Source: Pseudomonadota bacterium
GTDB taxonomy: Bacteria; Bdellovibrionota_F; JAHFAK01; JBDREC01
Direction of reading: 5' to 3'
NCBI GenBank assembly: GCA_043820105.1
Contig: JBDREC010000078.1
Location: 1 to 36,879 of the forward strand
Length of the DNA: 36,879 bases
Part shown: positions 4,351-35,938 of the stretch, one piece after another
Numbering within the stretch: position 1 is the first letter of the stretch
Layout: the number at the start of each line of letters is the position of its first letter
Notes under the pieces: model-generated
Told to the model about the DNA's origin: nothing
Database searches by the model: none
What the model saw: the letters and a program-made list of their open reading frames with translations, nothing else
Program-made: the position numbers and the translations under genes

Positions 4351-5718
4351 ATGAGTATTTTATATTTTTTATTACTTACATTCTTTTTTATAATGGGTGT
4401 GTTGGTAATTATCAGGACTGCTACTTCACCTGGGTCATTTATAACTTTACTCTTATTTACTATGATTTCGAGTGGAGGAATAATGGTTTTTGGATATTGC
4501 TTAATGGATGAATTTATTTTGGTTTGTCTTTTAATGGGGGTATTATTATTTTTCTCTATAAAAAAAAGGGTGTCAAACAAGGAAGAAGGTATTAATAAAT
4601 CTAAACTTTCTACCATTCATTTTATTGTATTTTCTGTCTTTATGGTATATCTGATTATTGAAAGTTTTCGTGGATATTTTGTTTTGAATGATTTCAGAAT
4701 GATGAGATTTGTCATCTTTTTTTCAATGCTAGGATTTCTATCTTATGTTCTTCATTATAAATTATTTCCCTTACCTACTCAGAAGCAAATTCTTATTGTA
4801 GTAATTTTAGGCAGCTTATTATATTTTTCTTTATATCTCTTTCATGGGGTGTTTTCAGAGCTAGTTAGGGGATTTAATAGATTTACTGCTCAAGGTACTG
4901 AATGGGCAGGAAGTTCAGTAGCTATGTTTCCAGTAATTACCCTGATACCAGCTTTATATAGTGTTTTTGGAAAAGACTCAAAGTATATTTTTAGTGCGGA
5001 ATCAGAAAAAAAAATTAGTAGGATTACGTGGATTACTCTTTCTGTGATAATTGCCACCTCCTTTTATTATGATTCGCGGTTGTCCTGGATAGCCATCACC
5101 GTTTTTATTGTTTTTTCTGTTCCAAATCTAGGAATTAAAAAATCTTTAATTATTTTTGGTATTTTTTTATTGTGTTTTTCCTTTCTATCATATGGGTTTA
5201 TTTCACATGGCAATTTTTTTGAAAATATAAGAATTTTTTATGATGAGTTGTTTATTGCAGGGACCGGACAACAAGTTTCAGACCTAGACCGTAAACTACA
5301 AGTGCTAGCAGGCTTCAGATGTATTAGTAAAAATATTCATACATTTTTTTTTGGAACGGGTTTTTATACTGAAAGATATGCATTAATACCTTATTATATA
5401 GAGGTGTTTTCTGAAATAGGAATTCCAACTGGAGAAGTAGAAATTGTTCGACCTGCCACTTTTACTTCATTTCTAACAGGAACAGGGGTTGTTGGTGTTT
5501 TCTTTTTAGTTGCATGTTTTGTTTTATCAGGTTTTGAAATTCTATTTGCTACAATGAGGACAAATCCTATTAAAATGGTTATTATTTTATTAATGCTATT
5601 TATGGCAGCATTTTCTATTTTTATTTCGATTAACCTAGATATGGTACTTTTTTATTTATGTATTATGCCATCAGGGATATTTATTTTATTAAGTAGAGAA
5701 GAAAGAAGAAAAGAATGA
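4351..5718 (+). CDS. Wzy-like polysaccharide polymerase / O-antigen ligase family membrane protein
   Basis: About 11-12 hydrophobic segments, DSR motif, SDLDR loop and FFFGTG (Wzy_C-like). Lies between wzz and the GT/flippase genes. Confidence 0.7.
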   Translation: MSILYFLLLTFFFIMGVLVIIRTATSPGSFITLLLFTMISSGGIMVFGYCLMDEFILVCLLMGVLLFFSIKKRVSNKEEGINKSKLSTIHFIVFSVFMVYLIIESFRGYFVLNDFRMMRFVIFFSMLGFLSYVLHYKLFPLPTQKQILIVVILGSLLYFSLYLFHGVFSELVRGFNRFTAQGTEWAGSSVAMFPVITLIPALYSVFGKDSKYIFSAESEKKISRITWITLSVIIATSFYYDSRLSWIAITVFIVFSVPNLGIKKSLIIFGIFLLCFSFLSYGFISHGNFFENIRIFYDELFIAGTGQQVSDLDRKLQVLAGFRCISKNIHTFFFGTGFYTERYALIPYYIEVFSEIGIPTGEVEIVRPATFTSFLTGTGVVGVFFLVACFVLSGFEILFATMRTNPIKMVIILLMLFMAAFSIFISINLDMVLFYLCIMPSGIFILLSREERRKE

Positions 5719-6803: not shown

Positions 6804-8141
6804 ATGCTAATCATTCGTATAATTAATAAATATTTACAATATCTTTTGAGCCTTCTAAATCATAACGGGTTTAAGAGATATTTTACAAATACTTCATGGA
6901 TGTTAGGCGAGAATATATTAAGAATGATTGCTGGCTTGTTTGTAGGAATTTATGTTGCTCGTTATCTTGCTCCAGAAAAATATGGTATTCTTAGTTATGC
7001 GACTGCCTTCGCGAGTTTATTTAAAGCCCTATCTGATCTTGGTTTAGATTCAATTACAGTTAGGGAGTTGGTGAAATTTCCAGAAAAAAGAGATGATATT
7101 CTTGGGACAGTTTTTAGGCTAAGACTAATAAGTGGAATCTTTGTTTTGATTCTAATTGCTGTAGTTGTTCAATTAACTTCTAACAACCATATTGTTAATA
7201 TCTATATTTTTATCATCGCGAGTGGATTTATATTTCAATCTTCTCATGTAATAGACTATTATTTTCAGTCTAAAGTGCTTTCAAAATATGTATCTATCTG
7301 TAAAATGACACAGACATTTATTTCATCATTGATCAAACTTTATTTTATCTTTATTAGCGCTGACTTGTTTTGGTTTGTAATAGTAATTTTGGTGGATGAA
7401 ATTTTTTTAGCGATATCCCTTTGTTTTTCTTACTGGAAACAAAAAGTTGGATTGTTTTTTGGTAATTTTAGTTTTGACATTGCCAAACAGTTGCTTGAAT
7501 ACTCTTGGCCGCTTATTTTTTCGGGTGTTACCGTAATGGTTTATTTAAGAATTGATCAAATAATGATAAAGGAAATGCTCTGTGACGCTGATGTTGGAAT
7601 ATATTCTGCTGCAGTTAGATTGTCTGAAGTTTGGTACTTTTTTCCAGCCATTATCACAAATTCACTTTTTCCGGCGATTATTAATTCTAAGAAAAACGGA
7701 ATTGTTTTTTATAGAGATAGAATAAAAAAACTATACTCTCTATTGATTTGGATGGCTATTGGAATTTCTTTAATAACAACTTTTTTTAGTAATTGGATAG
7801 TTACAACTCTTTATGGAACTGCATATGAGCTAGCAGGTAATGTTTTGAAAATCTATATTTGGGGAAATGTTTTTGTCTATCTAAGTGCGGCTTTTGGTAA
7901 ATACTTAATTAATGAAAACATGATGAAGAAAAATTTTTATAGGGTTTTAGCTGGTGCTGTAACAAATGTAATCTTGAATTTAATATTAATAAAGGCATAT
8001 GGAATATTTGGTTCTGCAATAGCAAGTCTTATTTCTTTATTTGTTGCGAATTTTTTGTATGATTTTTTTGATAAAGATTTACATGATCAGCTAAAATTAA
8101 AAATACTAGCTTTAATAAATCCTTTTGGGGTGAAGCAATGA
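6804..8141 (+). CDS. wzx: Wzx flippase (polysaccharide biosynthesis protein)
   Basis: NTSWM...VARYLAPEKYG, RIDQIMI...VGIYSAAVRLSE, NVILNLILI..YGIFGSAIA, with many TM segments. Confidence 0.92.
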   Translation: MLIIRIINKYLQYLLSLLNHNGFKRYFTNTSWMLGENILRMIAGLFVGIYVARYLAPEKYGILSYATAFASLFKALSDLGLDSITVRELVKFPEKRDDILGTVFRLRLISGIFVLILIAVVVQLTSNNHIVNIYIFIIASGFIFQSSHVIDYYFQSKVLSKYVSICKMTQTFISSLIKLYFIFISADLFWFVIVILVDEIFLAISLCFSYWKQKVGLFFGNFSFDIAKQLLEYSWPLIFSGVTVMVYLRIDQIMIKEMLCDADVGIYSAAVRLSEVWYFFPAIITNSLFPAIINSKKNGIVFYRDRIKKLYSLLIWMAIGISLITTFFSNWIVTTLYGTAYELAGNVLKIYIWGNVFVYLSAAFGKYLINENMMKKNFYRVLAGAVTNVILNLILIKAYGIFGSAIASLISLFVANFLYDFFDKDLHDQLKLKILALINPFGVKQ

Positions 8142-14728: not shown

Positions 14729-15018
14729 TAAAATCCCTTCATATTTGTATGGTATGTTTTCCTTTGAATATGTAATGTTTTTTTAACCTGAAATCTCGAA
14801 TAAAAACAATCTTTTTCTTAATAGACTGATCAACCCATAACAATATCATGAGCTTTTATTGAATGAAAGTGAGCATATAGCGAACCAGTGTTGATAGTGG
14901 TGTGATGTTTGTTTTCGGAAGAAAACATTACGTTTGAGGTTTGCTTCTATATTTTTTCTTGCTATTCAAATAAAACGAACTTAATAAAAGTCTAAAATTT
15001 TAAATAGGAGAATTGAAA

Positions 15019-15564
15019 ATGATTCATGAAACAGCCCAAGTTTCTCCTGATGCAAAAATCGGAGAAGGAACCAGTATTTGGAACTGGTGTCAAGTTCGAG
15101 AGAATTCTGTTATTGGAAAAAATTGTACCCTTTCAAAAGGTGTTTATGTAGATTTTGATGTTATTATTGGTGATAATGTAAAAATTCAGAACAATGTTTC
15201 TGTTTATCATGGGGTTGTGCTTGAAAACGGTGTTTTTGCTGGTCCACATGTTTGTTTTACAAATGATTTATTGCCAAGGTCAATTAATCCTGATGGCTCT
15301 TTAAAATCTAATGATGACTGGGTCTTATCTAAGACTTTAGTAAAAGAAGGAGCTTCAATTGGCGCTAATGCAACTATCGTGGCTGGCACGACAATTGGTA
15401 GATTTGCTTTAATAGGCTCAGGATCTGTTGTCACAAAAGATGTTCCAGACCATGGCCTAGCGTTTGGAAACCCTGCAAAATTAAGAGGTTACGTCTGTCA
15501 TTGTGGTCAAAAACTTGACAGTGAGAATGAATGTAAAAAATGTAATTTTAAGCTGGAATTGTAA
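15019..15564 (+). CDS. wbpD: Hexapeptide-repeat N-acetyltransferase, WbpD/WlbB-like
   Basis: IHETAQV, left-handed beta-helix repeats, VKIQNNVSVY, FTND..PR, GNPAK, C-terminal CHCG...CKKC. AGGAG at 15006-15010 favours ATG 15019. Confidence 0.85.
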   Translation: MIHETAQVSPDAKIGEGTSIWNWCQVRENSVIGKNCTLSKGVYVDFDVIIGDNVKIQNNVSVYHGVVLENGVFAGPHVCFTNDLLPRSINPDGSLKSNDDWVLSKTLVKEGASIGANATIVAGTTIGRFALIGSGSVVTKDVPDHGLAFGNPAKLRGYVCHCGQKLDSENECKKCNFKLEL

Positions 15565-15570
15565 GATTTG

Positions 15571-15668
15571 TTTTGCCACAGAGACACAGAGGTCACAGAG
15601 GAAGAAAATATTATTTCGAAGAAATAAAAAACCCAATTCTCTGTGCTCTCTGTGCCTCTGTGGCAAAA
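15571..15668. repeat. Palindromic REP-like element, copy 1
   Basis: ttttgc-CACAGAG-a-CACAGAG-gt-CACAGAG ... ttatttc-gaa-gaaataa ... CTCTGTG-ct-CTCTGTG-c-CTCTGTG-gcaaaa. Confidence 0.95.
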
Positions 15669-15769
15669 ATAAAATTTGGTTATCAGAGTATTTTCCTTGC
15701 CTTTTTTAGCTTTCAGGGCTAAAAGACGGCCGATTTTTAACAATAATCCTCAAATAAAGGAGATTAATA

Positions 15770-16870
15770 ATGATCGCTATTACTAAACCAATAGTTGGTG
15801 ATAGAGAAAAAGAACTTGTAGTTGAAGTGATGAATTCAGGAATGCTTGCTCAAGGTCCAAGAGTCAAAGAATTAGAAGAAAAATTTGCTGCTTTATGCGG
15901 TACAAAATATGCTGTTGCAACCAATTCAGGTACTGCAGCAATTCATGCCTCCTTAGCTGCTTTTGGTGTGGGAGCAGGAGACGAAGTCATAACAGTTCCA
16001 TTTACTTTTATAGCATCTGTTAATCCAATATTAATGCAAAATGCTACACCAGTTTTTGCAGACATTGATGAAAAAACTTTTAATTTAGATCCAGAAAAAT
16101 TAGAAGAAAAAATCACTAAAAAAACAAAAGCAATTATCCCTGTTTGTCTTTATGGTCAGATTTATAATTATGAAAAAATTAAAGAAATAGCGGATAAGCA
16201 TAATTTGTTTTTATTAGAAGATGCTTGCCAATCTGTTAATGCAAAACGTGGCGATCTAATGAGTGGAGCTTGTGGCGATATGGCTGCCTTTAGCTTATAT
16301 GCAACAAAAAACATTATGAGTGGCGAAGGCGGAATCGTAACAACAAATAGTGAAGAACTTGCTACTAAAGTCATGAGATTTAGGCATCATGGTCAAGGAC
16401 CAGATGTTAGATATTTTTATCATGAATTAGGTTACAATTATAGGACTACTGATTTATGTGCTTCTATAGCTCTTGCACAACTAGAAAGGCTAGAAGAAGT
16501 AACAAACAATAGAATTACTAATGCTAAATATCTTTCTGAATGCCTTGGTGGACTTGAAGGAATTACAATTCCACATATTGATGAAAACTGCAAACACGTT
16601 TTTCATCAATATACTATTAAAGTTGATTCAGAAAAAGTAAGTAGAGATGAATTCTTACAAAAACTTAGAGATGGTGGGATAGGCGCTGGAGTTTATTATC
16701 CAAAACCAATCCATCTTTTTCCATTATATGAAAAGTTTGGATACAAAGAAGGTGATTTTCCTGTTGCAGAAAAAATGTCACAGCAGGTGGTCTCACTTCC
16801 TTGTCATCCTTCATTAAGCAGAGAAGACTTGGATACTATTGTTAAGAGCGTAAAAGACGCTTTGAAATAA
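15770..16870 (+). CDS. wbpE: DegT/DnrJ/EryC1/StrS PLP aminotransferase, WbpE/WlbC-like
   Basis: NSGTAAIH, GDEVITVPFTFIAS, EDACQS, FSLYATKNIMSGEGG (PLP Lys), GYNYR. Lies between wbpD-like and wbpB-like genes. Confidence 0.85.
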   Translation: MIAITKPIVGDREKELVVEVMNSGMLAQGPRVKELEEKFAALCGTKYAVATNSGTAAIHASLAAFGVGAGDEVITVPFTFIASVNPILMQNATPVFADIDEKTFNLDPEKLEEKITKKTKAIIPVCLYGQIYNYEKIKEIADKHNLFLLEDACQSVNAKRGDLMSGACGDMAAFSLYATKNIMSGEGGIVTTNSEELATKVMRFRHHGQGPDVRYFYHELGYNYRTTDLCASIALAQLERLEEVTNNRITNAKYLSECLGGLEGITIPHIDENCKHVFHQYTIKVDSEKVSRDEFLQKLRDGGIGAGVYYPKPIHLFPLYEKFGYKEGDFPVAEKMSQQVVSLPCHPSLSREDLDTIVKSVKDALK

Positions 16871-16882
16871 CGAATTTAAAAA

Positions 16883-16974
16883 GCCACAGAGACACAGAGG
16901 TCACAGAGGAAGAAAATATTATTTCGAAGAAATAAAAAAAAACCAATTCTCTGTGCTCTCTGTGCCTCTGTGGC
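16883..16974. repeat. Palindromic REP-like element, copy 2
   Basis: Near-identical to copy 1, including the AT-rich spacer. Confidence 0.95.
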
Positions 16975-17038
16975 AAAAAAACCGTTGTATAATAAGGCTT
17001 AAGAGAACAATTAATTAGTGAGGGTAAAAGAGAATACA

Positions 17039-17132
17039 AGCCACAGAGACACAGAGGTCACAGAGGAATAGAAAATATTATTTCGAAGAAATAAAAAAAA
17101 TACTTCTCTGTGTTCTCTGTGCCTCTGTGGCT
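17039..17132. repeat. Palindromic REP-like element, copy 3
   Basis: Same arms and same inner ttatttc-gaa-gaaataa hairpin. Ends ~8 nt before the AGGAG of the next gene. Confidence 0.95.
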
Positions 17133-17152
17133 AAATAAAAAGGAGAATAAAA

Positions 17153-18148
17153 ATGAAAGTTGGAGTTATTGGTGTTGGATCTATGGGAAGAAATCATGCA
17201 AGAGTTTGTCATGATGTTGAAAATTTAGAATTAGTAGCAATTTCTGATGTAAATCAGGAAGCTGTTGATACATTAGCAAAAAAATATCGCTGTAAAGCTT
17301 ATACAGATTACGAGCAAATGATAAATGAAAATGAATTTGATATGGTGATTGTTGTTGTTCCTACTTCTTTGCATAAGGAAGTTTCTTTAAAGTGTATTGA
17401 AAAGGGAATTAATTTATTAATTGAAAAACCAATTGCCTCTACTGATGTTGAAGGTCAAGAGATCTTGAATTTTGCTGAAGAAAAAGGCGTGCAAGTAATG
17501 ATCGGTCACATTGAAAGATTTAATCCTGTTATTGCTGAACTTAGAAAAAGACTTAAAGAGGGCGAACTTGGTAAGATATTTAAAATAGCCATTGACAGAA
17601 TTGGACCTTTTCCAGCTAGAATCAGAGACGTTGGTGTTATAATTGATCTAGCTGTTCATGATCTTGATATTATCAGATTTTTAACAGATGCAAAAATTAC
17701 AAGATTATATGCAGAAACAGGAAATAAAATTAACACAGATAATGAAGACCTTCTAGAAGGTACTATTAGACTTGATAATGATATTATTTGCACACTAAAC
17801 ATTAACTGGCTTACACCAACCAAGATGAGAAAAATCTTTGTAACAGGAGCAAAAGGAATGTTTGTTGCTGACTATCTTTCACAAAATCTTTTATTTTTTG
17901 AAAACAAAGAAATAGATAAAGACTATTCCTATACTGACATGGTCAGAGGTGTTTCAGAAGGTGTTATGATTAGATATAATATTAACAAATATGAACCTCT
18001 AATGGCTGAAATAAAGCATTTTGCGGATTGTATTAAAAATGACACAAAACCTTTAATTACTGGCTATGACGGACTTACAGCTTTAAAGCTTGCGCAGGAT
18101 TTGAAAAAATCTGCTGAACTTGGTGAAGTTGTTAAGGTTAATTACTAG
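17153..18148 (+). CDS. wbpB: Gfo/Idh/MocA NAD-dependent oxidoreductase, WbpB/WlbA-like UDP-GlcNAcA 3-dehydrogenase
   Basis: GVIGVGSMGRNHAR, LIEKPIA, GHIERFNP, GVIIDLAVHDLD. Gene context supports the call. Confidence 0.8.
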   Translation: MKVGVIGVGSMGRNHARVCHDVENLELVAISDVNQEAVDTLAKKYRCKAYTDYEQMINENEFDMVIVVVPTSLHKEVSLKCIEKGINLLIEKPIASTDVEGQEILNFAEEKGVQVMIGHIERFNPVIAELRKRLKEGELGKIFKIAIDRIGPFPARIRDVGVIIDLAVHDLDIIRFLTDAKITRLYAETGNKINTDNEDLLEGTIRLDNDIICTLNINWLTPTKMRKIFVTGAKGMFVADYLSQNLLFFENKEIDKDYSYTDMVRGVSEGVMIRYNINKYEPLMAEIKHFADCIKNDTKPLITGYDGLTALKLAQDLKKSAELGEVVKVNY

Positions 18149-18184
18149 AAGAAAAGTACTTGCTAAAATGTAAGTGATAAAGAA

Positions 18185-18289
18185 ACCACAGGGACACAGA
18201 GACACAGAGAAATTAATATACATAAAAAAGAATTTTATTTTATAAAATTCTTTTTTATTTTTTTCTCTGTGTCTCTGTGCCTCTGTGGT
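18185..18289. repeat. Palindromic REP-like element, copy 4 (variant with different, self-complementary spacer)
   Basis: ac-cacaggg-a-cacagag-a-cacagag-aaa ... ataaaaaagaatttta / taaaattcttttttat ... ttt-ctctgtg-t-ctctgtg-c-ctctgtg-gt. Confidence 0.9.
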
Positions 18290-18307
18290 AAAAATAAGGA
18301 GTTTCGA

Positions 18308-19448
18308 ATGAACAAAATAGCCGTAATTGGACTTGGAAAGGCTGGAATACCTTTAGCTTGTGTAATTGCTGAACAAAATATTCCAGTAATTGGCTTAGAT
18401 GTTTCGACAAAAAGAGTTGAAGATATTAATAATAAGATCAATCCGATCCCAGAAGAACCAGGAGTTTCAGAAATATTTGACAAACATATTGGAGTTAACT
18501 TTGAAGCAACTACTTCTTATGAAAAAATCTTAAAAGAATGTAATGTTTTTATAGTTATTGTTCCATTGTTTATTGATGATAATAAGCAACCGGTTTTTGA
18601 TAATATTGATACTGTCATGAATGAACTTTCTAAAGGTTTAAAAGATGATGATTTAGTTGTTTTAGAAACAACAGTTCCAGTTGGTACAACTCGAAATCGT
18701 TTAAAACCTATTTTAGATAAAAGTGGTTCTGATTATATGTTAGCTTATTCACCAGAAAGAATCATGACAGGCTGGTCAATTTCACGATATAGAGAATTTC
18801 CAAAAGTTGTAGCAGGACTTGATGAAAAAGCTACAAACAAGGTTTTTGATGTTTATTCAAAATTTTGCACAAAAGCTGACAAGGTTGACACAACTGAAAC
18901 AGCTGAGATGATAAAAGTTTCAGAAGGCGTTTATAGAGATGTTAACATTGCCTTGGCCAATGAGCTTTTTAAATTATGCGAAAAATATGGAATTGACTTT
19001 AAACAAATGAGAGAAAAAGCAAATCATCAATTCGTAAATATTCATCAGCCGGGCATTGGCGTTGGCGGGCACTGTATTCCAGTTTATCCATGGTTTTTGA
19101 TAAATGATAATGATGTCCCACTCACAAAAACAGCTCGGCTCATGAATGATGATATGATTCATTATTGGAAAAATAAAGTTTTAAAAAAAATTAGATGGGA
19201 AAAAGAAAGTTGGTGTAATTGGAATTACATACAGAAAAGGTGTAAAAGAGCTAGCTTATACAAGATCTCTTCCTTTCATTAAAGAGCTTGAAAAGGCAGG
19301 CCTTGATGTTTATGTGGCGGATCCAATGTATAGTGAACAGGAGATACAAGAACTCGGTTTTAAATATCACGCTAATCATGAGAATGTGGACTTAAATATT
19401 GTTATTAATATGACTATGAATATAACTAACAATACTATGTACATTTAA
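18308..19448 (+). pseudogene. wbpA: UDP-GlcNAc/ManNAc 6-dehydrogenase, WbpA-like, frameshifted at A8 tract 19183-19190
   Basis: IAVIGLGKAG, ETTVPVGTT, YSPERI, GIGVGGHCIP. From 19191 another frame reads LDGKKKVGVIGITYRKGVKELAYTRS...VYVADP to TAA 19446-19448, the expected C-terminal domain. Removing one A restores a ~379 aa ORF. AGGAG RBS precedes ATG 18308. Confidence 0.85.
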
Positions 19449-25464: not shown

Positions 25465-25566
25465 TTGAAAACTGTTTTAACAATAGCAGGGTCGGATCCA
25501 TGTAGTGGAGCGGGAATTCAAGCTGATTTACAAACATTTAAAGATTATGTAGTATATAAGGTTTGA
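25465..25566 (+). pseudogene. thiD: 5' remnant of a thiD homolog (33 codons)
   Basis: TTG-start frame reads (M)[32 protein letters not shown], matching the intact ThiD N-terminus [31 protein letters not shown]. Confidence 0.85.
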
Positions 25567-25638
25567 GTGTTTCCAAAGATGTCTTGAAAGCTTTAATTAA
25601 AAGTTTATTTGATAATAGTGAGGCTCAAATTAGTTTTT

Positions 25639-26781
25639 ATGAAAATAGCAATATTAAGCATTACGCAGAATGGTATAAGTGGTGGATATAAAAAATATTT
25701 AAATAATATTATTCCACTGATTAGCGGTAGCAAGGAAGTTGATGAAGTTCTATGTGTTTTTTCAAATTCTATTAAAAAATTATTTGTTGATCAAAAGATT
25801 GCAGGGGTTCAATATAAAAGTTGCAAAAATTTGACCTTATTGAATTATTTTTTTAACAAAGAATTATATAAATTTCTTGAAGAATTTGATCCTGATATTA
25901 TTTTTCTTACTGCTGAACGTCCTTTTAAATTCAAGAAGGTTCCCGTTGTTGTTTTATTTCAAGATATGAGGCCTTTTATTAAAAATGGCAGTGACTTTTC
26001 TTTTATAAACAAAATTAAATTACAACTCAAAAAAAGAATTAGTTTGATGTCTTTTCAGATGGCAGATAAAGTAATTACAGTTTCTGATAGCTGCAAATTT
26101 TATTTAAAAAAAGAATTAAAAATTAATTCAGACAAAATTAACTATATTTACTATGGTGTCAATCCTTGTGAACAATCTTTTAAGCCTACTATAGTTCCTG
26201 ATGATTGGAAAAACAAATTCATATTCACTGCAGGTAGTTTTGGATCCTATCGAGGTTTTGAAGATTTAATTAAAGCTTTTACACTTTTTGATTTTAATCA
26301 ACTTGGAATTAAGGGAATTGTAATTGCATCTAATTTAAATGATGTCGAAAAAAAATATAAAGCATATTTAGATAAACTAATAGCTAAACACAACCTTAAC
26401 TCAAAAGTTATTTGGACTGATGAAATTTCTGAACCAGAAATGACCTGGTGCTATTCTAATTCTCAGCTTTTCATAATGACCAGTAGAGTTGAGTCAATTG
26501 GAATGATTGCACTAGAAGCTTTAGCACATAAATGCAGAATAATTTCAGCCAGGAATTTTTGTTTGCCTGAGATTTTTGCTGAAGCAGCATTATACTACAC
26601 TCCCAAAGATTCTGAAATGCTTGCAAATGTTATTAAAGATGCTATTGCTATGACAAGGGTTGCAAAAGAAGAATTTGTTGAGAAAGTAGAAAAACAAGCA
26701 ATGATGTTTTCGTGGGATAAGTGTCTCATGGAAACGATTTCTAATTTTAATTCAATACTTCAAACAAAAACTTTTAAATAG
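25639..26781 (+). CDS. Glycosyltransferase family 4
   Basis: MKIAIL..., ADKVITVS, IYYGV, FIMTSRVESIGMIALEALA, LPEIFAEAALY. ORF is open from 25609. Confidence 0.85.
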   Translation: MKIAILSITQNGISGGYKKYLNNIIPLISGSKEVDEVLCVFSNSIKKLFVDQKIAGVQYKSCKNLTLLNYFFNKELYKFLEEFDPDIIFLTAERPFKFKKVPVVVLFQDMRPFIKNGSDFSFINKIKLQLKKRISLMSFQMADKVITVSDSCKFYLKKELKINSDKINYIYYGVNPCEQSFKPTIVPDDWKNKFIFTAGSFGSYRGFEDLIKAFTLFDFNQLGIKGIVIASNLNDVEKKYKAYLDKLIAKHNLNSKVIWTDEISEPEMTWCYSNSQLFIMTSRVESIGMIALEALAHKCRIISARNFCLPEIFAEAALYYTPKDSEMLANVIKDAIAMTRVAKEEFVEKVEKQAMMFSWDKCLMETISNFNSILQTKTFK

Positions 26782-26847: not shown

Positions 26848-26919
26848 GATAATGATAGGTTGACACAATCCTATATTCGTGAGCACCTTGAAAAGACAAC
26901 TAACATATTAGGCTTGTAG
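26848..26919 (+). pseudogene. 3' remnant of a YjbH-family gene
   Basis: Reads DNDRLTQSYIREHLEKTTNILGL*, against DNDKLTPSYIKSHLNEAMER* at the end of 23387-25462 (10 of 14 identical). Confidence 0.7.
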
Positions 26920-27007
26920 CTTATAGCTTGTGGCTTGTAGGGACTGTTGGGCAATGTGAATTAATAATTTATTTTCCTACTAGCTACTAGCTACCAACTA
27001 CCAGCTA
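26912..27007. repeat. Inverted pair of heptamer tandem arrays
   Basis: gcttgta-gcttata-gcttgtg-gcttgta-gg ... cctacta-gctacta-gctacca-actacca-gcta. The arms pair with roughly one mismatch per 7 bp. Confidence 0.85.
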
Positions 27008-28960: not shown

Positions 28961-31900
28961 TTACCAGCTTCCTGGCCCACCCCATCTTCCGCCAAAAGCT
29001 CCCATGTCTGTTGCAGTGTCTACAAATCCATCTTCATCGAAATCATCGCCTGTTCCGTCTTCATCCCAATCATCATAAGAGCCATCAGCATCAACATCGC
29101 AAGTTCCTGCATCTATTCCAGGAGAATAAGCCCTTATCAAGAACTGATTAAAGGCAACTTCATCATCTGGATCACTTGGCTCTAAAATGTCTGGAATGCC
29201 GTTTGCATCAATATCAATAGTAATGTCCATGACAGTATCACTGTCCCCATCATAGGTTTTAATGAAGAGTTCTGGATCAGACCCAAGTATATTGTTATAT
29301 GCTGATGAATCCGAATAGTCAGTTTCCAGGCACCAGTCATCAGAGTTATTATCGAACATCAAATTATAATGAAATAAGGCAGTGTAAGTTGGACTTCCAG
29401 AATGTTCCATCGCAACACCACAATCCAGACTTTTCGCGATAATATTGTTTGCAATGTAAACAGGGGCATCCAGACTTTCATCCTTATAAATAGAACCAAA
29501 TCCCTGACCATTATTAAAGTAAAAAATATTATTGACGATATGTATCGGGTCTTCAGAAGATTCATTCGCCAGATATACAACGCCTTCAGCTGTACCATTG
29601 TTACCATTAGCATAAAAAATGTTGTTAAAAAATTCCATGCCATATGTGTGCTTAGCATAAAATGCTGCTCCATTATCTGTGGCATTGTTTTTAGTAAAAA
29701 TATTATTATGAATTTCATTTTCACCGTTTACATAATTCATATAAATAGCGCCACCACTTTCTGCTGAATTGCTAATATATCTGTTGTTGGTAATAGTATA
29801 GGCAGCATTATTTAAGGAACTATATATTGCTCCACCATAATTCTGTGCACTATTTGAAATGAAATCATTGTCGGAAATAATAATGGGATCTGTTGCTGCT
29901 GAAAAGAATATTGCTCCACCACTTAAGCTGCTTCCTGAATCAGCCTGGGCAGTGTTGTTATTAAATTCATTTCCTGAAATAGTAAATTCACTGTTCATAG
30001 AATAAAATGCACCACCTTTTGCTGCTGTGTTATTTGAGATGCTATTATTATCCAAAAGGCCAGCCTCAACATTGTTAAAGGCAATGGCACCACCAGAATT
30101 CGCGATATTGTTACTAATGGTTGTATTATTATCAATTGACACCGAATTGCCACTATACACATAAATAGCACCACCGTACGATCCAGCGGTGTTATTTGAA
30201 ATACTGGTGTTAGAACTAATTGAGATATTGTCAGAATTTTTTACGTAAATAGCACCAAAGGAAGCAAATGATTCATTATAATCAATAGCTATATTATTAT
30301 CAATTGAGACATTATCTGAAGCATTAAGATAAATTGCACTTCCTGAGGTTTCGGCAAAATTGTGGGAAATTATATTTTCTTCAATCATGCTTCCTGGTGA
30401 GCTATCCACGGTAATTGCTCCTCCATTGATCTCTGAATAATTATATTGCAGTTCATTTCCACTAATGAGGGCTTCAGAATTGTCAAGATATATAGCTGCT
30501 CCGTAACTCGCGGTCTGATTGCAGTTAATTTTGTTGGAAGCAATGATTAAATCCTGACTTAAATCTTTTGCGTAAATTCCACCGCCATTACCATGTCTGA
30601 TAGTAAAGCCTTTGATATTGGTTTCTGTTTCAGAGCCAGAATAAGTGGATAAAGAGTAACTGATAGCAACATCTTCCATATTTCCATCTATAATTGTATC
30701 TTCACGTCCTTTTAAGCTTAAAAGCTTAAGTTTTTTATCATTAATTATAAGGTTTTCTTCATAAATACCTTCAGCAACAACAATGCATGCTCCATCTTCC
30801 ACCGAATCAATAGCATCTTGTATTGTATCAAAATCACCTGTTCCATCTAAAGCAACATAATAATCATATGCAAACATTGCGTCAGTATCATCACAATCTC
30901 CAGCTTCCTCTGAATAAATTGAGGTAATCATATCTCCAGGGTTTGAACAAGCCTCTATAGAATTTTCAAAAAGTCCATAACCATCATTATCTCTATCAGG
31001 ATACCATGTTATCATGACATCTTCATCAACAGCTCCATCACAATCATTGTCAATAGAGTCGCAAATTTCCGCGGCACCGGGATTGATTGTTGCATCGCTA
31101 TCATTGCAATCTCCCTCTGTCGGCGAATAACCATCACTGTCATCATCAAAGCCACTAATTTCAGCCTCATATCCTGAACAATCTTGATCTATTCCGTCAA
31201 ACATCATGGCGTCGTCCAGGGCTCCGGGATTTATTGATGCGTCTGAATCGTTGCAATCAGTGTTATCTGCAACATAATCTGTTGGCTCAGAACAGGCTTT
31301 TGTTGTATTATCCGGATTTCCATATCCATCTTCATCATTATCCTTATAATAAGTTGTTTTTACATATTCATCAACTACATCATCACAATCATTATCTTTA
31401 GCATCACAAACTTCAGAGGCGCTTGGATATCTTTCAGCATCAGTGTCATCACAATCATCACTTAACTCAGCGTAACCGTCTGGCAAAGCACAAGCTTCAG
31501 TTGTTGTGTCACTTACTCCGTGATTATCTCCATCATCATCAATATAATAAGTTGTAAGTCCTATTATGAGTGGATCCTCATCATCTGATAAACCATCACA
31601 GTTATTATCTATTCCATCACAGATTTCTGAAGCACCTGGATAGGCACTAGCTTCTGTATCATTGCAATCAGTATTGTCTGCAACATATCCAGGAGTCGCA
31701 GTACAGGCAAATATTCCACTTGAGCTATCTCCATAACCATCAATATCACTATCCAAATAGAATGTTGTCATATCAATAGCATCAGAGTCAGTTATTCCAT
31801 CACAGTTATTATCAACTCCATCACAAACTTCATCCATGTCTGGATTTATTGCCCCGTCAGTATCATCACAATCTTCATCATTTGAAACAAAACTACTTGG

Positions 31901-32830
31901 CCTTTCACAGGCATAATCAATTGAAGCTGCATTCCCATAGCCATCACCATCAAGATCATGATACCAGGTTAAGACATCAATAGCATCAGCTTCATCGGTG
32001 CTTCCATCACAATCATTATCATCTCCATCACAGAATTCATCAGCTCCTGGATTAATATCAGCATCAAAATCATTACAATCAAGGTCTACTAATGACATTA
32101 ATGCAGAGGCATCAACATAACCTGACATAGCTCCACATGATTCGTAAGTTACTCCTGTTGTGTAGCCATCAGAATCATCGTCCTGATAGTAGACTGTTGA
32201 AGGTGCTTCCTCTGTATCAACAAGCCCATTGCAATTATTATCAATTCCATCTAAGCAGTCTTCTGGCGCCTGTGGATTTATTGAAGCATCTGAGTCATCA
32301 CAATCTTCATCATTGCTTTCATAATCATCTGGCTGAGCACAGGCTTGAATACTTGTTTCACTGCTTCCGTACCCATCTGTGTCCTCATCTAAGTACCAGG
32401 TGGAGGCATCTAGGGCATCAGCTTCATCAATTTCATCATCACAATCATTGTCAACTCCATCACAATATTCATTGGCACCTGGATAAATGCTTGCATCAGT
32501 GTCATCACAGTCGCCTGCCTCGACAGTTGAACCATCTCCGTCAGAGTCTGTTTCAGCGTCTCCATCGCCGTCTCCATCACCATCACCGTCCCCATCACCA
32601 TCGCCATCCCCATCACCATCACCATCACCGTCCCCATCGCCGTCTCCATCACCATCACCATCTCCATCACCATCGCCGTCTCCATCTCCATCTCCTTCAC
32701 CAGTCTGTCCATAAATTCCAGAATCATCTGTATCTTCATCTGTATTTGAACATGCGATAAAAGATGTTAATAAGAATAATGAAATTAATAAAAGTATAGA
32801 AATGTTTTTTATTTTGCCACTAGAGCCCAT
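28961..32830 (-). CDS. Large acidic surface lipoprotein: (GD)n linker, 8 putative metal-binding (MopE-type) repeats, right-handed beta-helix with GGAI repeats
   Basis: Lipobox-like SFIA-C. Eight DCxDxDAxIxPGAxExCDGxDNxCDG units plus one partial. GDFDTIQDAID...GIYEENL beta-helix cap, repeated NxAxxGGAI, C-terminal SPGIDAG...DMGAFGG. GGGAGA RBS favours ATG 32830 (ORF open from 32848). Confidence 0.85.
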   Translation of the reverse strand: MGSSGKIKNISILLLISLFLLTSFIACSNTDEDTDDSGIYGQTGEGDGDGDGDGDGDGDGDGDGDGDGDGDGDGDGDGDGDGDGDGDGDGDAETDSDGDGSTVEAGDCDDTDASIYPGANEYCDGVDNDCDDEIDEADALDASTWYLDEDTDGYGSSETSIQACAQPDDYESNDEDCDDSDASINPQAPEDCLDGIDNNCNGLVDTEEAPSTVYYQDDDSDGYTTGVTYESCGAMSGYVDASALMSLVDLDCNDFDADINPGADEFCDGDDNDCDGSTDEADAIDVLTWYHDLDGDGYGNAASIDYACERPSSFVSNDEDCDDTDGAINPDMDEVCDGVDNNCDGITDSDAIDMTTFYLDSDIDGYGDSSSGIFACTATPGYVADNTDCNDTEASAYPGASEICDGIDNNCDGLSDDEDPLIIGLTTYYIDDDGDNHGVSDTTTEACALPDGYAELSDDCDDTDAERYPSASEVCDAKDNDCDDVVDEYVKTTYYKDNDEDGYGNPDNTTKACSEPTDYVADNTDCNDSDASINPGALDDAMMFDGIDQDCSGYEAEISGFDDDSDGYSPTEGDCNDSDATINPGAAEICDSIDNDCDGAVDEDVMITWYPDRDNDGYGLFENSIEACSNPGDMITSIYSEEAGDCDDTDAMFAYDYYVALDGTGDFDTIQDAIDSVEDGACIVVAEGIYEENLIINDKKLKLLSLKGREDTIIDGNMEDVAISYSLSTYSGSETETNIKGFTIRHGNGGGIYAKDLSQDLIIASNKINCNQTASYGAAIYLDNSEALISGNELQYNYSEINGGAITVDSSPGSMIEENIISHNFAETSGSAIYLNASDNVSIDNNIAIDYNESFASFGAIYVKNSDNISISSNTSISNNTAGSYGGAIYVYSGNSVSIDNNTTISNNIANSGGAIAFNNVEAGLLDNNSISNNTAAKGGAFYSMNSEFTISGNEFNNNTAQADSGSSLSGGAIFFSAATDPIIISDNDFISNSAQNYGGAIYSSLNNAAYTITNNRYISNSAESGGAIYMNYVNGENEIHNNIFTKNNATDNGAAFYAKHTYGMEFFNNIFYANGNNGTAEGVVYLANESSEDPIHIVNNIFYFNNGQGFGSIYKDESLDAPVYIANNIIAKSLDCGVAMEHSGSPTYTALFHYNLMFDNNSDDWCLETDYSDSSAYNNILGSDPELFIKTYDGDSDTVMDITIDIDANGIPDILEPSDPDDEVAFNQFLIRAYSPGIDAGTCDVDADGSYDDWDEDGTGDDFDEDGFVDTATDMGAFGGRWGGPGSW
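32558..32695 (-). repeat. (GD)23 coding repeat
   Basis: 138 bp of GGN-GAY codon pairs with mixed third positions. Confidence 0.95.
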
Positions 32831-33074
32831 ATCTTTCTCCCAATTCAAAAATTATGAAAATTGAACTGCTTCTTTTGCCCTAAAAATGGTAAAATGACTA
32901 TCTAACTATTATTAAACATTATAATAATAAGAAAGTTCCGAATAGCTTATTTAGCAAGAAATATATCAATATAGAAAATTACGCGACATGTCAACGGAAT
33001 TCGGGCTTATGGATAAACATTTAGTTTTAATGTAAAAGGAATTAAGTTATAGATTTAAGATACTGGTAAAATAT

Positions 33075-35441
33075 CTATAAAGCGTTACAATATGGTACCT
33101 TAATATACTGAAGATCTGAACTGCTGTTTTGAAAAACTATCATGGCGATATTATTTACTGAATCCAGTGCAAGATCTGATCTAATATCTCCACCAACTAA
33201 AGAAGTGCCTATTTCAATAAAGTTCAATATGCCATCTCCAAAATCATTTCCATACATCATTTTTCCATTGGTTGAATCAAAGTAGATTATGTGTCTTGAA
33301 TTATCGTTTTTATCAATTGCTAAATTTGGTCGTTTTATAGTTGCAACTGCTGGGTTAATTGTTTCAAACTCCCATAAACCATTTGATTTTTTTGCATAAT
33401 ATAACATGTTTTCATTTGAATCCAAATATACTGTATGTAAATTGTTGCCCAGGTCCATGACCATTGAAGGTCTTGTTCCGATCTCTGAGGCTCCGTATGG
33501 ATTGGGGTCTGGTACATCTTCAATTGTCCAGGCACCCCAAGGATCAAGCCCTCTATCAAGGAAGCCATGTTGAAGGTTGTTATTTGTGTCATTAAAAAAT
33601 ACTGAATGGATATTGTCATTTGCATCAATGTCACCAGAAATATAATTTGTTTGATCAGTACTTATATATCTCCAATTTCCATTACAGGAAAATTGCTCAC
33701 AATAATAAGCAGGATCTGAAGACTCTTCATTACCATTTACATCAAAGCCTATATTGCAAAGCATATGTGTGTTGCTTAAGCTATCAATTAACAGGTTGTA
33801 ATAGTTTCCCATGCTTCTTTCTACTTGTGTGCTGATTGTATTATTTGCAGGGTCAGACCAAAGCATTGAATCTGTGGGTTTGTAAAAAAGAATATGTGGC
33901 ATATTCGAATTATTTGGATCTGTTTTAATGTCTATAGATCTTGCGAAAGTGCATTGGGACTCTTGGTTTTTGGACCAGGCAGCAAGTGATCCAGTAGCAT
34001 ATTTAAGACAGTTTCCATTATTATATGCAATATGTGGTATGCCATCGGAGCCTACTGCAATGCTGTTATATTCACCGGCGTTTTCTTCAATAATTCCACT
34101 TTCGATTGTACATTCACCATCCCCATCACCGTCACCATCGCCATCACCATCACCGTCGCCGTCACCATCACCGTCACCATCACCATCACCATCGCCATCA
34201 CCATCACCTGGTTCAGGATTGTTTTGTCTTAGACTTCCTTTTAAATATTTTAAACCCCAGTCTACTTCATTTTCTTGGCTAAAAAAAGATGTAACTAGAT
34301 GAAAACCTCTATTATCTAATACAAAAGAATGCTGGCCACCAAGATAATTTTCCTCAAGCAAATCATAAGACCAAGTATTAGCGACTTTACGATAAAGTCT
34401 TAAGCCATCTCCATTTGATGATGTTATGATTGGATTTTCTTTTTTTAAATTTATATGTATTCCTCTCTGCCCGTGATATGGAAGTTCCCCGATTACTTCC
34501 TCAGAAAAATTATTAAACTCTCCGTGAGTATAAATAAATTCATCAGAATCATTAACAAATACAGCATGAATAATACCATTTCTGTCAATTGTCGCATCTA
34601 TGGAATAATCCAATGAAATTGATTCTGCATGACTATGCAGTGGAGCTACAATAATATTTTCACTATCAAATGTTTTCCAGGCTATACTGGCTTTTTGGTT
34701 TGTGGTATCATAGTAAACTAGGTATAAGTTATTTTGAAAAAATAAAGCTTTTAATGGAGTGTATTCCGCAGTGTGTTGTGTGATATTGCTTATTTCCCAA
34801 TCACCACCTGCCAAAGCTTGTCTTGCATATTTAATTTCTTGCTCAATATGATCTTTATAGAAAAAATGTTTTCTTTGTGTTGCAATAATTAAGTTAGATA
34901 CATTTCGTGCACTTGTTCCTTCAATGCTTGCTTCTTCCCTATTTGATGGATCAAGAGGATCTTGACCAGGATCAATTATTTTTAAATATGTAACTTGAGG
35001 GTCATCATAAATGTATGGCAAGGTTAATATGTGCAGTGAATTATTGCGATCAAGTAATGTTTTGCTATTATAACCAGATGTTCCTTGAGAGATTAAATCA
35101 AAAAGCTCCCAGTTATTTTCTTTTAACTTGCGCGCAAATTTCAATTTTTTATCATTTACTGCAAAACTTTCAGCGTATACAGCAAATAATAATCTGTTTT
35201 GTGCTATCAACTCTAATGATGGATAATAACCCAAATCGCCCTGTTCAACAAATTCCGAATTTAAATTTAAACTCGATTTTTCACTCATTCCCACCAAGAC
35301 ATTTGGATCATATTCAAGGGAATCAGATCCTTGAGTATCTACATCTTTACCTCCACAAAATCCTACAACTCCCAAGGATAATGCTAATAAAAATGTGGAA
35401 ATCGCGATTATAAGGGCTGGAATTTTAAGTTGTTTCTTCAT
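33075..35441 (-). CDS. Exported (possibly lipo-) protein with two predicted beta-propeller-like regions joined by a (GD)n linker
   Basis: Signal peptide ending VVGF-C. Repeated SIAVxSxGxPHIxY...LKYA...W units on both sides of the linker. GGGGG RBS upstream. Confidence 0.7.
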   Translation of the reverse strand: MKKQLKIPALIIAISTFLLALSLGVVGFCGGKDVDTQGSDSLEYDPNVLVGMSEKSSLNLNSEFVEQGDLGYYPSLELIAQNRLLFAVYAESFAVNDKKLKFARKLKENNWELFDLISQGTSGYNSKTLLDRNNSLHILTLPYIYDDPQVTYLKIIDPGQDPLDPSNREEASIEGTSARNVSNLIIATQRKHFFYKDHIEQEIKYARQALAGGDWEISNITQHTAEYTPLKALFFQNNLYLVYYDTTNQKASIAWKTFDSENIIVAPLHSHAESISLDYSIDATIDRNGIIHAVFVNDSDEFIYTHGEFNNFSEEVIGELPYHGQRGIHINLKKENPIITSSNGDGLRLYRKVANTWSYDLLEENYLGGQHSFVLDNRGFHLVTSFFSQENEVDWGLKYLKGSLRQNNPEPGDGDGDGDGDGDGDGDGDGDGDGDGDGDGDGECTIESGIIEENAGEYNSIAVGSDGIPHIAYNNGNCLKYATGSLAAWSKNQESQCTFARSIDIKTDPNNSNMPHILFYKPTDSMLWSDPANNTISTQVERSMGNYYNLLIDSLSNTHMLCNIGFDVNGNEESSDPAYYCEQFSCNGNWRYISTDQTNYISGDIDANDNIHSVFFNDTNNNLQHGFLDRGLDPWGAWTIEDVPDPNPYGASEIGTRPSMVMDLGNNLHTVYLDSNENMLYYAKKSNGLWEFETINPAVATIKRPNLAIDKNDNSRHIIYFDSTNGKMMYGNDFGDGILNFIEIGTSLVGGDIRSDLALDSVNNIAMIVFQNSSSDLQYIKVPYCNAL
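34119..34208 (-). repeat. (GD)15 coding repeat
   Basis: 90 bp of GGN-GAY codon pairs. Confidence 0.95.
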
Positions 35442-35597: not shown

Positions 35598-35702
35598 AAG
35601 GGGTAAGTGGTAAGGGGTAAGTGGTAAGTGGTAAGTGGTAAGGGGTAAGTGGTAAGTGGTAAGGGGTAAGGGGTAAGTGGTAAGTGGTAAGTAGTATGTG
35701 GT
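35598..35702. repeat. Intergenic heptamer tandem array, 15 x AAG(T/G)GGT
   Basis: 13 exact aagtggt/aaggggt units followed by aagtagt and atgtggt. Confidence 0.95.
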
Positions 35703-35821
35703 AACGTCTTTCCTGTTGATTATTGAAAAATTTAACTAGTTACCGAACTGGAAACTGGGTCAAGCCACGGGATGATAACACGGGATGTTATGTTTTTTTG
35801 TTTTTGCCTCTTTTTCTTCTT

Positions 35822-35938
35822 ATATCTTAACTCTTAAATCTTAATCTTAATCTTAAATCCTAAGTAGTAAATATAACATTCAACTTTTTTCGATTAGGAT
35901 TAAAGAACCAAGAATTGTGAAAAATTGTAATCCTAATC
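35822..35938. repeat. Degenerate tcttaa(a) array plus 11-bp inverted repeat
   Basis: tcttaac-tcttaaa-tcttaa-tcttaa-tcttaaa-tcctaa, then gattaggatta (35892-35902) / taatcctaatc (35928-35938). Confidence 0.7.

Follow-up and report, generated by a model that had tools for sequence, protein, structure and literature searches.

Several classes of short palindromic or heptamer-built repeats are known from the gaps between bacterial genes. Repetitive extragenic palindromic (REP) sequences and the hairpin-forming doublets built from them (REPINs), which are lineage-specific, are short, imperfect, multi-copy palindromes of operon gaps and 3' regions that leave no target duplication and flank a single small enzyme gene, that of the REP-associated tyrosine transposase (RAYT, an HUH-type Y1 transposase). 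Integron attC sites are imperfect hairpins of 60-140 nt that follow genes, their short paired boxes split by unpaired bases, and they are not known to be built of repeated heptamers. Miniature inverted-repeat transposable elements (MITEs) are non-coding and about 100 bp long, with terminal inverted repeats of about 30 nt and arms shared with a longer gene-bearing relative, and the short tandemly repeated repetitive (STRR) sequences of cyanobacteria are heptamer-based, intergenic and arranged in open-ended tandem arrays. Free-standing homing endonuclease genes are exemplified by seg and mob of phage T4, with I-Ssp6803I as a PD-(D/E)XK example. The intervening sequences (IVSs) of 23S rRNA are foldbacks within a host transcript that are regarded as selfish; in Coxiella burnetii the terminal stem of the IVS is 28 bp long, interrupted by one mismatch and one bulge, the arm region contains three tandem heptamers (GACAGAT), and the element encloses a small open reading frame (ORF) and is cut mid-stem by RNase III (PMC4990558). 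Here we describe four imperfect hairpins with arms of three CACAGAG heptamers in a 36,879-nt stretch of DNA from a Pseudomonadota bacterium of the GTDB lineage Bdellovibrionota_F (assembly GCA_043820105.1, contig JBDREC010000078.1; hereafter the window, meaning the whole stretch), where they lie between polysaccharide genes resembling wbpD, wbpE, wbpB and wbpA.

The window hairpins and their relatives in other genomes resemble these repeat classes in several of the traits just given, among them the foldback with a terminal stem of about 28 bp, broken by a mismatch or bulge, described for the IVS. REP/RAYT pairs, integron attC sites and classical MITEs nevertheless each have at least one defining feature that is lacking here. 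On other replicons, genes of the GxxExxY family are physically linked to such arms, and the gene-bearing cassettes are inserted at junctions that are empty in related species. Hairpins are also nested within hairpins, and ORF-less and gene-flanking hairpins with identical arms occur in one replicon. The window hairpins are, with reasonable likelihood, copies of a selfish foldback GxxExxY cassette that lack its ORF, or else unoccupied landing sites for it.

Four hairpins in the wbpD-E-B-A module

The hairpins are 90-105 nt long and occupy all three gaps between the WbpD-, WbpE-, WbpB- and WbpA-like genes.

15571-15668, no strand assigned: hairpin 1 (core 15575-15664, extended via TTTT/AAAA), beginning 7 nt past the acetyltransferase stop codon
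16883-16974, no strand assigned: hairpin 2, nearly the same as hairpin 1 in arms and loop, beginning 13 nt past the aminotransferase stop codon
16975-17038, no strand assigned: spacer of 64 nt without an ORF between hairpins 2 and 3, which form a tandem pair
17039-17132, no strand assigned: hairpin 3, nearly the same as hairpins 1 and 2, with the AGGAG (17141-17145) of the oxidoreductase gene 8 nt on
18185-18289, no strand assigned: hairpin 4, of the same arm build with 1-nt spacers, with an AGGAG (18297-18301) 7 nt on

The initial annotation of this DNA had placed four hairpins at the internal junctions of the module, and their coordinates, unit counts and folds are as it described, including the distance of 7-8 nt that it gave between copies 3 and 4 and the AGGAG (measured as 8 nt and 7 nt). 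The 5' arm of hairpin 1 reads GC-CACAGAG-A-CACAGAG-GT-CACAGAG and its 3' arm CTCTGTG-CT-CTCTGTG-C-CTCTGTG-GC, around a 38-nt loop with a 7-bp hairpin inside it. Copies 1-3 are nearly the same throughout, loop as well as arms, and the fixed mismatches, common spacer and inner GAA hairpin attributed to them were all seen: an A.C mismatch after unit 1, a GU/CU internal loop after unit 2 and an inner UUAUUUC-GAA-GAAAUAA hairpin. Copy 4 retains the A.C mismatch and has the only unit that departs from the proposed build of three CACAGAG per arm, its first 5' unit being CACAGGG. The 55-nt loop of copy 4 is unrelated to that of the other copies and is still self-complementary, as had been noted, with an inner A/T palindrome of 14-16 bp.

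CACAGAG occurs 24 times in the window, counting both strands, against 1.74 expected, a number reached in 0 of 100 shuffles; 23 of the matches lie inside the four hairpins and the remaining one at 7578. The earlier statement that such palindromes occur nowhere else in the window holds for CACAGAG hairpins and fails for heptamer arrays generally, three of which are described below (26912-27007, 35598-35704 and 35818-35863). As RNA the four hairpins fold with -45.5 to -58.8 kcal/mol (z -9.2 to -13.7; 0 of 200 shuffles as good). Rfam gave no match to them at gathering score and only generic miRNA-precursor hairpins below that threshold, no promoter-like or terminator-like sites were predicted at the hairpins, and a blastn search of plasmids with hairpin 1 gave no match. 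Unlike IVSs, which sit in helix 25 or 45 of 23S rRNA (helix 45 for the Coxiella IVS), these hairpins lie in mRNA intergenic gaps between protein genes, and Rfam found no rRNA in the window. The IVS heptamers are also directly tandem, whereas here the units are separated by 1-2 nt and preceded by a conserved head.

A family of three-heptamer foldbacks across phyla

When 185,579 species-representative genomes were searched for runs of three CACAGAG units spaced 0-3 nt apart, at least 123 stretches with a three-unit arm were obtained, compared with about 4 expected by our own estimate from a uniform base model. The matches listed include Planctomycetota, Acidobacteriota (many of them Pyrinomonadaceae), Chloroflexota, all proteobacterial classes, Bacteroidota and Verrucomicrobiota, together with Nostoc, Sorangium, Streptomyces, Spirochaetes, Cloacimonadota and two archaea, and their local GC content ranges from 0.31 to 0.76. 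Removal of a duplicate locus (L051) left 152 arms at 122 loci, and 80 loci were analysed with 5-kb flanks. None of the loci listed belongs to the window genome itself.

The arms begin with a head, TT-M-R-C. Of the 152 arms, 133 have C at position -1 and 150 have a purine at -2, and T occupies -4 in 97 and -5 in 92. Most spacers are A, AA, G, GA or AG, and the tail is A-rich. The number of units is exactly three in 138 arms, the search pattern having demanded at least three. An inverted partner arm with two or more CRCRRAK units lies within 300 nt at 78 of the 122 loci, and in the 25 elements with two perfect arms the heads point outward in 19, the orientation found in the window, and inward in 6. 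Sister unit types arranged in the same layout (CACGGAG, CGCAGAG, CGCGGAG, CACGAAG, CGCAAAG, CACAGAT and CACGGAT) occur in neighbouring sequence. In the same 25 elements the two arms agree in their spacers in 18 and 13 cases where chance predicts 5.2 and 3.3, and this matching above chance means that the periodic mismatches of the window hairpins are not a trait of the family. The C-GAA-G triloop is likewise confined to copies 1-3.

Seven of the eight window arms match the generic three-unit pattern (CRCRRAG with mostly purine spacers of 1-2 nt), and the eighth is the one that opens with CACAGGG. Their heads, which supply the outermost pairs of the palindrome, have GC or AC at -2/-1 in all eight cases and T at -4/-5 in five, and all four copies are intergenic with an inverted partner within 300 nt. 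The window arms share their build with arms across phyla, and the suggestion of a dispersed, non-coding, MITE- or REP-like family is borne out by the number and spread of these stretches. Like STRR sequences, the family consists of heptamer-based intergenic repeats, and the window and several other loci also hold plain heptamer tandem arrays; the arms differ from STRR sequences in their three units, their head and their inverted partner. No Rfam family other than tRNA matched in 20 loci. The literature searched yielded no description of these arms; the arm strings matched only unrelated primers and eukaryotic sequences, and searches on heptamer repeats and STRR sequences led to little beyond the Coxiella IVS paper. 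Resemblances to DnaA boxes, parS half-sites, Chi, sigma-54 sites and V(D)J heptamers were dropped as unsupported partial matches.

GxxExxY genes bracketed by the arms

A scan of 101 small ORFs near CACAGAG elements identified one GxxExxY gene and one IS200-like Y1 gene. The former (L057:1985-2356; TIGR04256, E 1.4e-43; PF13366), in a metagenome-assembled genome (MAG), is both preceded and followed by a complete three-unit hairpin of the CACGAAG type. A tblastn search with its protein found the family on 8 plasmid records and, among phage records, found no match, giving a sample of ten genes (one MAG locus and nine places on eight plasmid records). Multi-unit CRCRRAK arms are present at six of them (L057, L124, L125, L126, L127 and L135), which upholds the suggestion in the initial annotation that similar CACAGAG arms flank GxxExxY genes elsewhere. 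Of the small ORFs that it had proposed to look for inside the copies, GxxExxY was found, at L057 and at the plasmid loci; the four-helix bundle (S23p, PF05635) was found in 0 of the 101 small ORFs by Pfam, a motif search also being without a match, and no RAYT gene flanked by the arms was seen among them. This is a further difference from the IVS, whose ORF encodes the S23p four-helix bundle and not GxxExxY.

The arms are disposed around the gene in two ways. In Bacteroides finegoldii (L124), Bernardetia (L126) and Sphingomonas (L127) the gene lies in the loop. The B. finegoldii gene is preceded by ttcac-CACAGAG-ga-CGCAGAG-ga-CACGGAG and followed by CTCTGTG-ac-CTCTGTG-tc-CTCTGTG-gtgaa, the Bernardetia gene is enclosed by CACAGAG-type arms and the Sphingomonas gene has CGCGAAG arms. 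At L057 and at one Gemmatirosa locus (L125) the gene stands between two complete, near-identical hairpins, and would there take the place of the 64-nt ORF-less spacer of the window. Both Gemmatirosa loci (L125 and L135) have full hairpins next to the gene, which is frameshifted at L125. In an alignment the window arms group with the gene-flanking arms of B. finegoldii and Bernardetia. Among the remaining genes, that of Treponema (L130) has a single-unit inverted repeat and three others (L128, L129 and L131) have different repeats. Two of these, on Fusobacteria and Prevotella plasmids (L129 and L131), are flanked by direct repeats of about 45 nt and about 100 nt, and the cassette may thus occur with other types of flank.

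Filled and empty sites, whose comparison had been proposed, were found for two gene-bearing cassettes whose junctions carry no cassette in related species. In B. finegoldii the cassette separates radA from the gene for an FAD-dependent protein, a junction at which Parabacteroides distasonis has a gap of 13 nt and Phocaeicola a different gene. In Sphingomonas parapaucimobilis the order is fabD-cassette-fabG, and the same junction in S. paeninsulae is 30 nt long. In all six annotated cases the GxxExxY gene is co-oriented with both neighbours. The literature searched describes no link between these arms and GxxExxY genes (subscription papers and database family notes lay outside its scope).

The GxxExxY gene, of about 123 codons, belongs to a very large family, E <= 1e-10 being reached by 7997 of the 8000 candidates that were scored. 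The top 120 relatives are 67-80% identical to the query and bear source names from several phyla, and such high identity over many phyla fits the listing of PF13366 as a family of function unknown with 'multiple transfers, mixed clades' in a published table (PMC3424549); the other papers listed appear to name the family only incidentally. Residues E27, D67, E77 and K79, which make up the predicted catalytic E, D and ExK set, and the GxxExxY motif are invariant in 32 of 32 aligned sequences. An AlphaFold model (predicted local distance difference test score, pLDDT, 94) has weak fold neighbours (best E 1.3e-3) in lambda exonuclease, Cas4 and the Holliday-junction resolvase Hjc, which is of similar size; a sequence search of the PDB with GxxExxY found no relative. 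GxxExxY is probably an active minimal PD-(D/E)XK nuclease.

Like a free-standing homing endonuclease gene, the GxxExxY gene is a small predicted nuclease gene that sits between conserved host genes, co-oriented with them, shows a sporadic distribution and signs of horizontal transfer, and has decayed copies (L125). The classical homing genes, in contrast, are not known to have hairpin-arm brackets or abundant ORF-less hairpin copies. As in MITEs, the arms are shared with a longer gene-bearing relative, whose protein is here a predicted PD-(D/E)XK nuclease with no known transposase activity. The element differs further from MITEs in showing no target-site duplication, in being palindromic throughout its arms and in nesting into hairpin loops.

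The initial annotation had looked instead to HUH/RAYT enzymes, and mobilisation of the hairpins as REPs or REPINs by a RAYT would agree with their being short, multi-copy intergenic palindromes that are often paired, with the absence of a target-site duplication, which fits single-strand HUH chemistry, and with the presence of a Y1_Tnp gene at one locus (L002:272-718). The head is TT-M-R-C (GC or AC in the window) and not GTAG/GTGG, however, and that sole Y1 gene, 4.3 kb away from the CACAGAG arm, has a flanking palindrome of another kind (GCCCTGGGC type) and scores below the NCBIfam IS200 cut-off (48.7 vs 55). A Y1 gene bordered by CACAGAG-type arms was not seen among the 101 small ORFs. With a predicted PD-(D/E)XK protein in place of an HUH enzyme, a different head, arms of three heptamers and a sequence common to several phyla, we regard a REP/RAYT origin as very unlikely. 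The Y1 gene itself, on a Gemmataceae contig, is bracketed by GCCCTGGGC-type palindromes with a CAGCCTTTCAGGCTGG core (L002:1-1000) and looks like a classical REP/RAYT pair on a contig that also carries a CACAGAG arm.

Genomic placement

Placement was assessed from crude ORF calls for the 82 elements in loci with flanks. The elements lie as follows.

Flanking genes co-directional: 39
Flanking genes convergent: 16
Flanking genes divergent: 8
Within a long ORF call: 16, mostly in high-GC loci
At a contig edge: 3

Most elements have at least one gene upstream of them, 55 of the 63 classifiable intergenic ones being co-directional or convergent. Pfam assigned the 121 flanking ORFs mostly to unrelated housekeeping functions without a shared theme, and the neighbours include nuoH/nuoJ, selB, gyrA, nusA, PEP carboxykinase, accA, sucC and E1beta/E2. 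An enrichment of polysaccharide genes hinted at by tblastx (WbpD-like at L050, E1beta-like at L037 and L105, DegT-like at L009) was undone by this Pfam analysis. The special tie to the sugar module that had been proposed is therefore not a property of the family, the elements elsewhere adjoining unrelated housekeeping genes; it is local to the window. In two Desulfobacterota-like MAGs (L003 and L017) a CACAGAG arm lies immediately upstream of selB, a placement that could be conserved or coincidental.

The same observations bear on an integron-like origin, in which attC sites would turn each sugar gene into a mobile cassette. The gene-hairpin-gene-hairpin order of the window, the imperfect hairpins of 90-105 nt with 7-bp boxes and small unpaired spacers, and the hairpin-gene-hairpin arrangement at L057 and L125 all recall attC sites. 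The RYYYAAC/GTTRRRY core sites are absent, though, the window copies ending in GCCACAGAG...CTCTGTGGC and ACCACAGGG...CTCTGTGGT; there is no integrase domain in the 27 window ORFs and no attI, on a contig of only 36.9 kb; and elsewhere the hairpins lie inside conserved operons (nuoH/nuoJ, E1beta/E2 and fabD/fabG). Here, moreover, it is sequence that is conserved and not structure alone. We conclude that the link to attC drawn in the initial annotation does not hold and that an integron-like origin is extremely unlikely.

Hairpins also occur inside other hairpins. At L136 (~5480-5660), L055 and L052 a hairpin is nested in another hairpin's loop, and additional palindromes are frequent in long loops. 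Two 50-kb stretches of a Gemmatirosa plasmid contain 12 arms, compared with 0 in shuffles, and an ORF-less hairpin there has the same arms as a hairpin beside a GxxExxY pseudogene 8 kb off. In a Methanotrichaceae archaeon an IS110-family transposase fragment (PF02371; L053:4656-5027) ends in or beside a CACAGAG hairpin, and may represent an insertion aimed at it.

Origin and spread of the window hairpins

A GxxExxY cassette as the source of the window hairpins would have the following plan and history. The element would consist of a TT-M-R-C head, three CRCRRAG heptamers with spacers of 1-2 purines and an A-rich tail, the arms inverted round a variable loop, and full-length relatives would carry the GxxExxY gene in the loop or between two hairpins, as a cassette co-oriented within host operons. 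From the association of gene and arms we infer mobilisation by the nuclease, which would work in trans, its substrate being either the arms or the extruded hairpin. The window copies would be non-autonomous derivatives or empty landing sites that have colonised, through local spread, the three neighbouring gaps between the wbpD/E/B/A-like genes, copies 1-3 being recent duplicates. Since the hairpins lie between co-oriented genes at which no promoter or terminator is predicted, they should be transcribed inside the operon mRNA, where the stems, each about 28 bp long, would offer RNase III a substrate and block 3' exonucleases. The stems are of the same size as that of the Coxiella IVS, which makes RNase III processing of the operon transcript plausible; such processing would insulate the inserted element, as happens with IVSs in 23S rRNA, and effects on the tuning of the sugar pathway, if any, would be incidental.

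Several results weigh against this reading. Only one of the 101 small ORFs near CACAGAG elements is a GxxExxY gene, and tblastn with nine family members at E up to 1 found no homologue in the 36.9-kb window and none near other CACAGAG loci, L057 excepted. The window copies can consequently only be ORF-less relatives, and a copy of the gene acting in trans from the window genome is assumed. The sample of ten GxxExxY genes is small and opportunistic, and four of its members are without multi-unit CRCRRAK arms. The presence/absence differences seen concern gene-bearing cassettes alone and are all between species. Twenty-four head-out arm pairings showed, at offsets 0-8, no direct repeat that would mark a target-site duplication, palindromic GC aside. 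At the RNA level, the sense strand folds better in 17 of 29 elements between co-directional genes and the antisense strand in 12, so selection on the sense-strand fold is not significant (Wilcoxon p = 0.22); in the window the antisense strand folds slightly better in all four copies. Processing of the stems by RNase III is plausible by analogy only.

The hairpins might instead be immobile intercistronic RNA elements that benefit the host in the manner of REP stabilisers, by giving the wbpD/E/B/A-like mRNA segments different stabilities or different processing. The occupation of every internal junction of the module, the two hairpins that end 7-8 nt before a strong ribosome-binding site, the very stable folds at places with no predicted promoter or terminator and the predominance of co-directional or convergent settings (55 of 63) would all agree with such a role. 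Yet the sense strand has no folding advantage, in many phyla the genes next to the same arms are unrelated, hairpins sit in each other's loops, there is an association with a nuclease gene, and the near-identity of copies 1-3, loop included, points to recent copying and not to old conserved regulators. We consider this role distinctly unlikely.

A second alternative retains mobility and reverses its direction. The hairpins would be an independent palindromic repeat family that serves as a target, GxxExxY genes and other hairpins homing into or near the loops, with the hairpins themselves spread by other means. Genes do lie in the loop (L124, L126 and L127) or between complete hairpins (L057 and L125), other hairpins and unrelated palindromes are nested in loops, and ORF-less copies far outnumber gene-bearing ones in the sample. 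IS110-type elements target REPs, and an IS110-family fragment abuts one element here (L053). This alternative leaves the spread of the hairpins without a source, however, and the conservation of heads and units across phyla is easier to understand if a conserved protein reads them. The present data do not separate it from the reading of the hairpins as cassette derivatives; we regard it as unlikely.

We also put forward, tentatively, a broader proposal built on the cassette reading: that these elements are an undescribed class of mobile element, extending over bacterial phyla and into archaea, in which a 123-residue GxxExxY nuclease reads three-heptamer hairpins or cruciforms, homes or transposes into operon gaps and hairpin loops, and leaves many ORF-less hairpins that host RNase III trims from the transcripts. 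The window would then hold four orphan copies in one sugar operon.

Host genes and other repeats in the window

The window has a GC content of about 30% and contains a polysaccharide cluster with Wzz, glycosyltransferases, a flippase and sugar-modifying enzymes. The four co-oriented genes around the hairpins have domain matches consistent with the wbpD-E-B-A naming that the initial annotation had given them.

15013-15564, + strand: WbpD-like hexapeptide sugar N-acetyltransferase, upstream of hairpin 1
15770-16870, + strand: WbpE-like DegT/DnrJ/EryC1 aminotransferase, by domain match
17153-18148, + strand: WbpB-like GFO/IDH/MocA oxidoreductase, whose top NCBIfam match, UDP-GlcNAc 3-dehydrogenase, is under the model cut-off
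18308-19445, + strand: WbpA-like nucleotide-sugar dehydrogenase in two frames, with a frameshift near an A-run

The two frames of the WbpA-like gene correspond to model positions 2-308 (18308-19282) and 313-383 (19185-19445). The break coincides with an A-run at about 19170-19200, and is either a genuine frameshift or a sequencing error.

The window genome carries several heptamer-built repeats. An inverted array at 26912-27007, (GCTTGTA)x4 and (TACNAGC)x4 around a 36-nt spacer, has a central mismatch in every unit pair, folds weakly (-32 kcal/mol, z -2.4) and ends 3 nt short of the thiD start (27010). At 35598-35704, within a 671-nt intergenic region, lie about 15 tandem GGTAAGT/GGTAAGG heptamers without an inverted partner; a comparable GGTCAGT/GGTTAGT array adjoins a CACAGAG arm in a low-GC Planctomycetaceae MAG (L025). 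About seven copies of TCTTAA(A) at 35818-35863 are followed by a short partial inverse, GATTAGGATTAAAG, at about 35890-35905, and their fold is no better than that of shuffles (z -0.8). At the left contig edge (92-137) a 24-nt unit, TGGACCACTTTAGCGTCCGATTAC, is present in 1.9 copies.

A relic of the 5' end of thiD at 25465-25565, with about 75% DNA identity to the start of the intact thiD at 27010, sits upstream of a glycosyltransferase gene (25609-26781), and the segment between relic and intact gene may be an old insertion. The best non-self matches of the window ThiD in the protein collection are 37-48% identical, which indicates that the window genome has no close relative there. Two very large ORFs occupy the - strand at 28961-32848 and 33075-35441. 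The first encodes eight MopE-type metal-binding repeats, a beta-helix and long Asp/Gly-rich tracts, the latter encoded by CCATCA-type hexamer repeats (32562-32702), and the second contains a like tract (34114-34208).

Implications

If the link between arms and gene reflects mobilisation by the nuclease, it would give a first functional context to GxxExxY/PF13366, a very large and highly conserved family, and would account for intergenic hairpins with nearly the same 30-nt arm recurring in sequence of 31%-76% GC. A nuclease that reads the heptamers would be a compact sequence- or structure-specific enzyme with natural variants for CACAGAG, CGCAGAG, CACGGAG, CACGAAG and CGCGGAT. Many family members are found on very short contigs, and the repeats probably break metagenome assemblies. 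In annotation, the hairpins could be mistaken for regulators or small ORFs. For the organism of the window, the hairpins are candidate RNase III sites, by analogy with the 23S rRNA intervening sequences, that could uncouple the expression of the four enzyme genes of the sugar operon.

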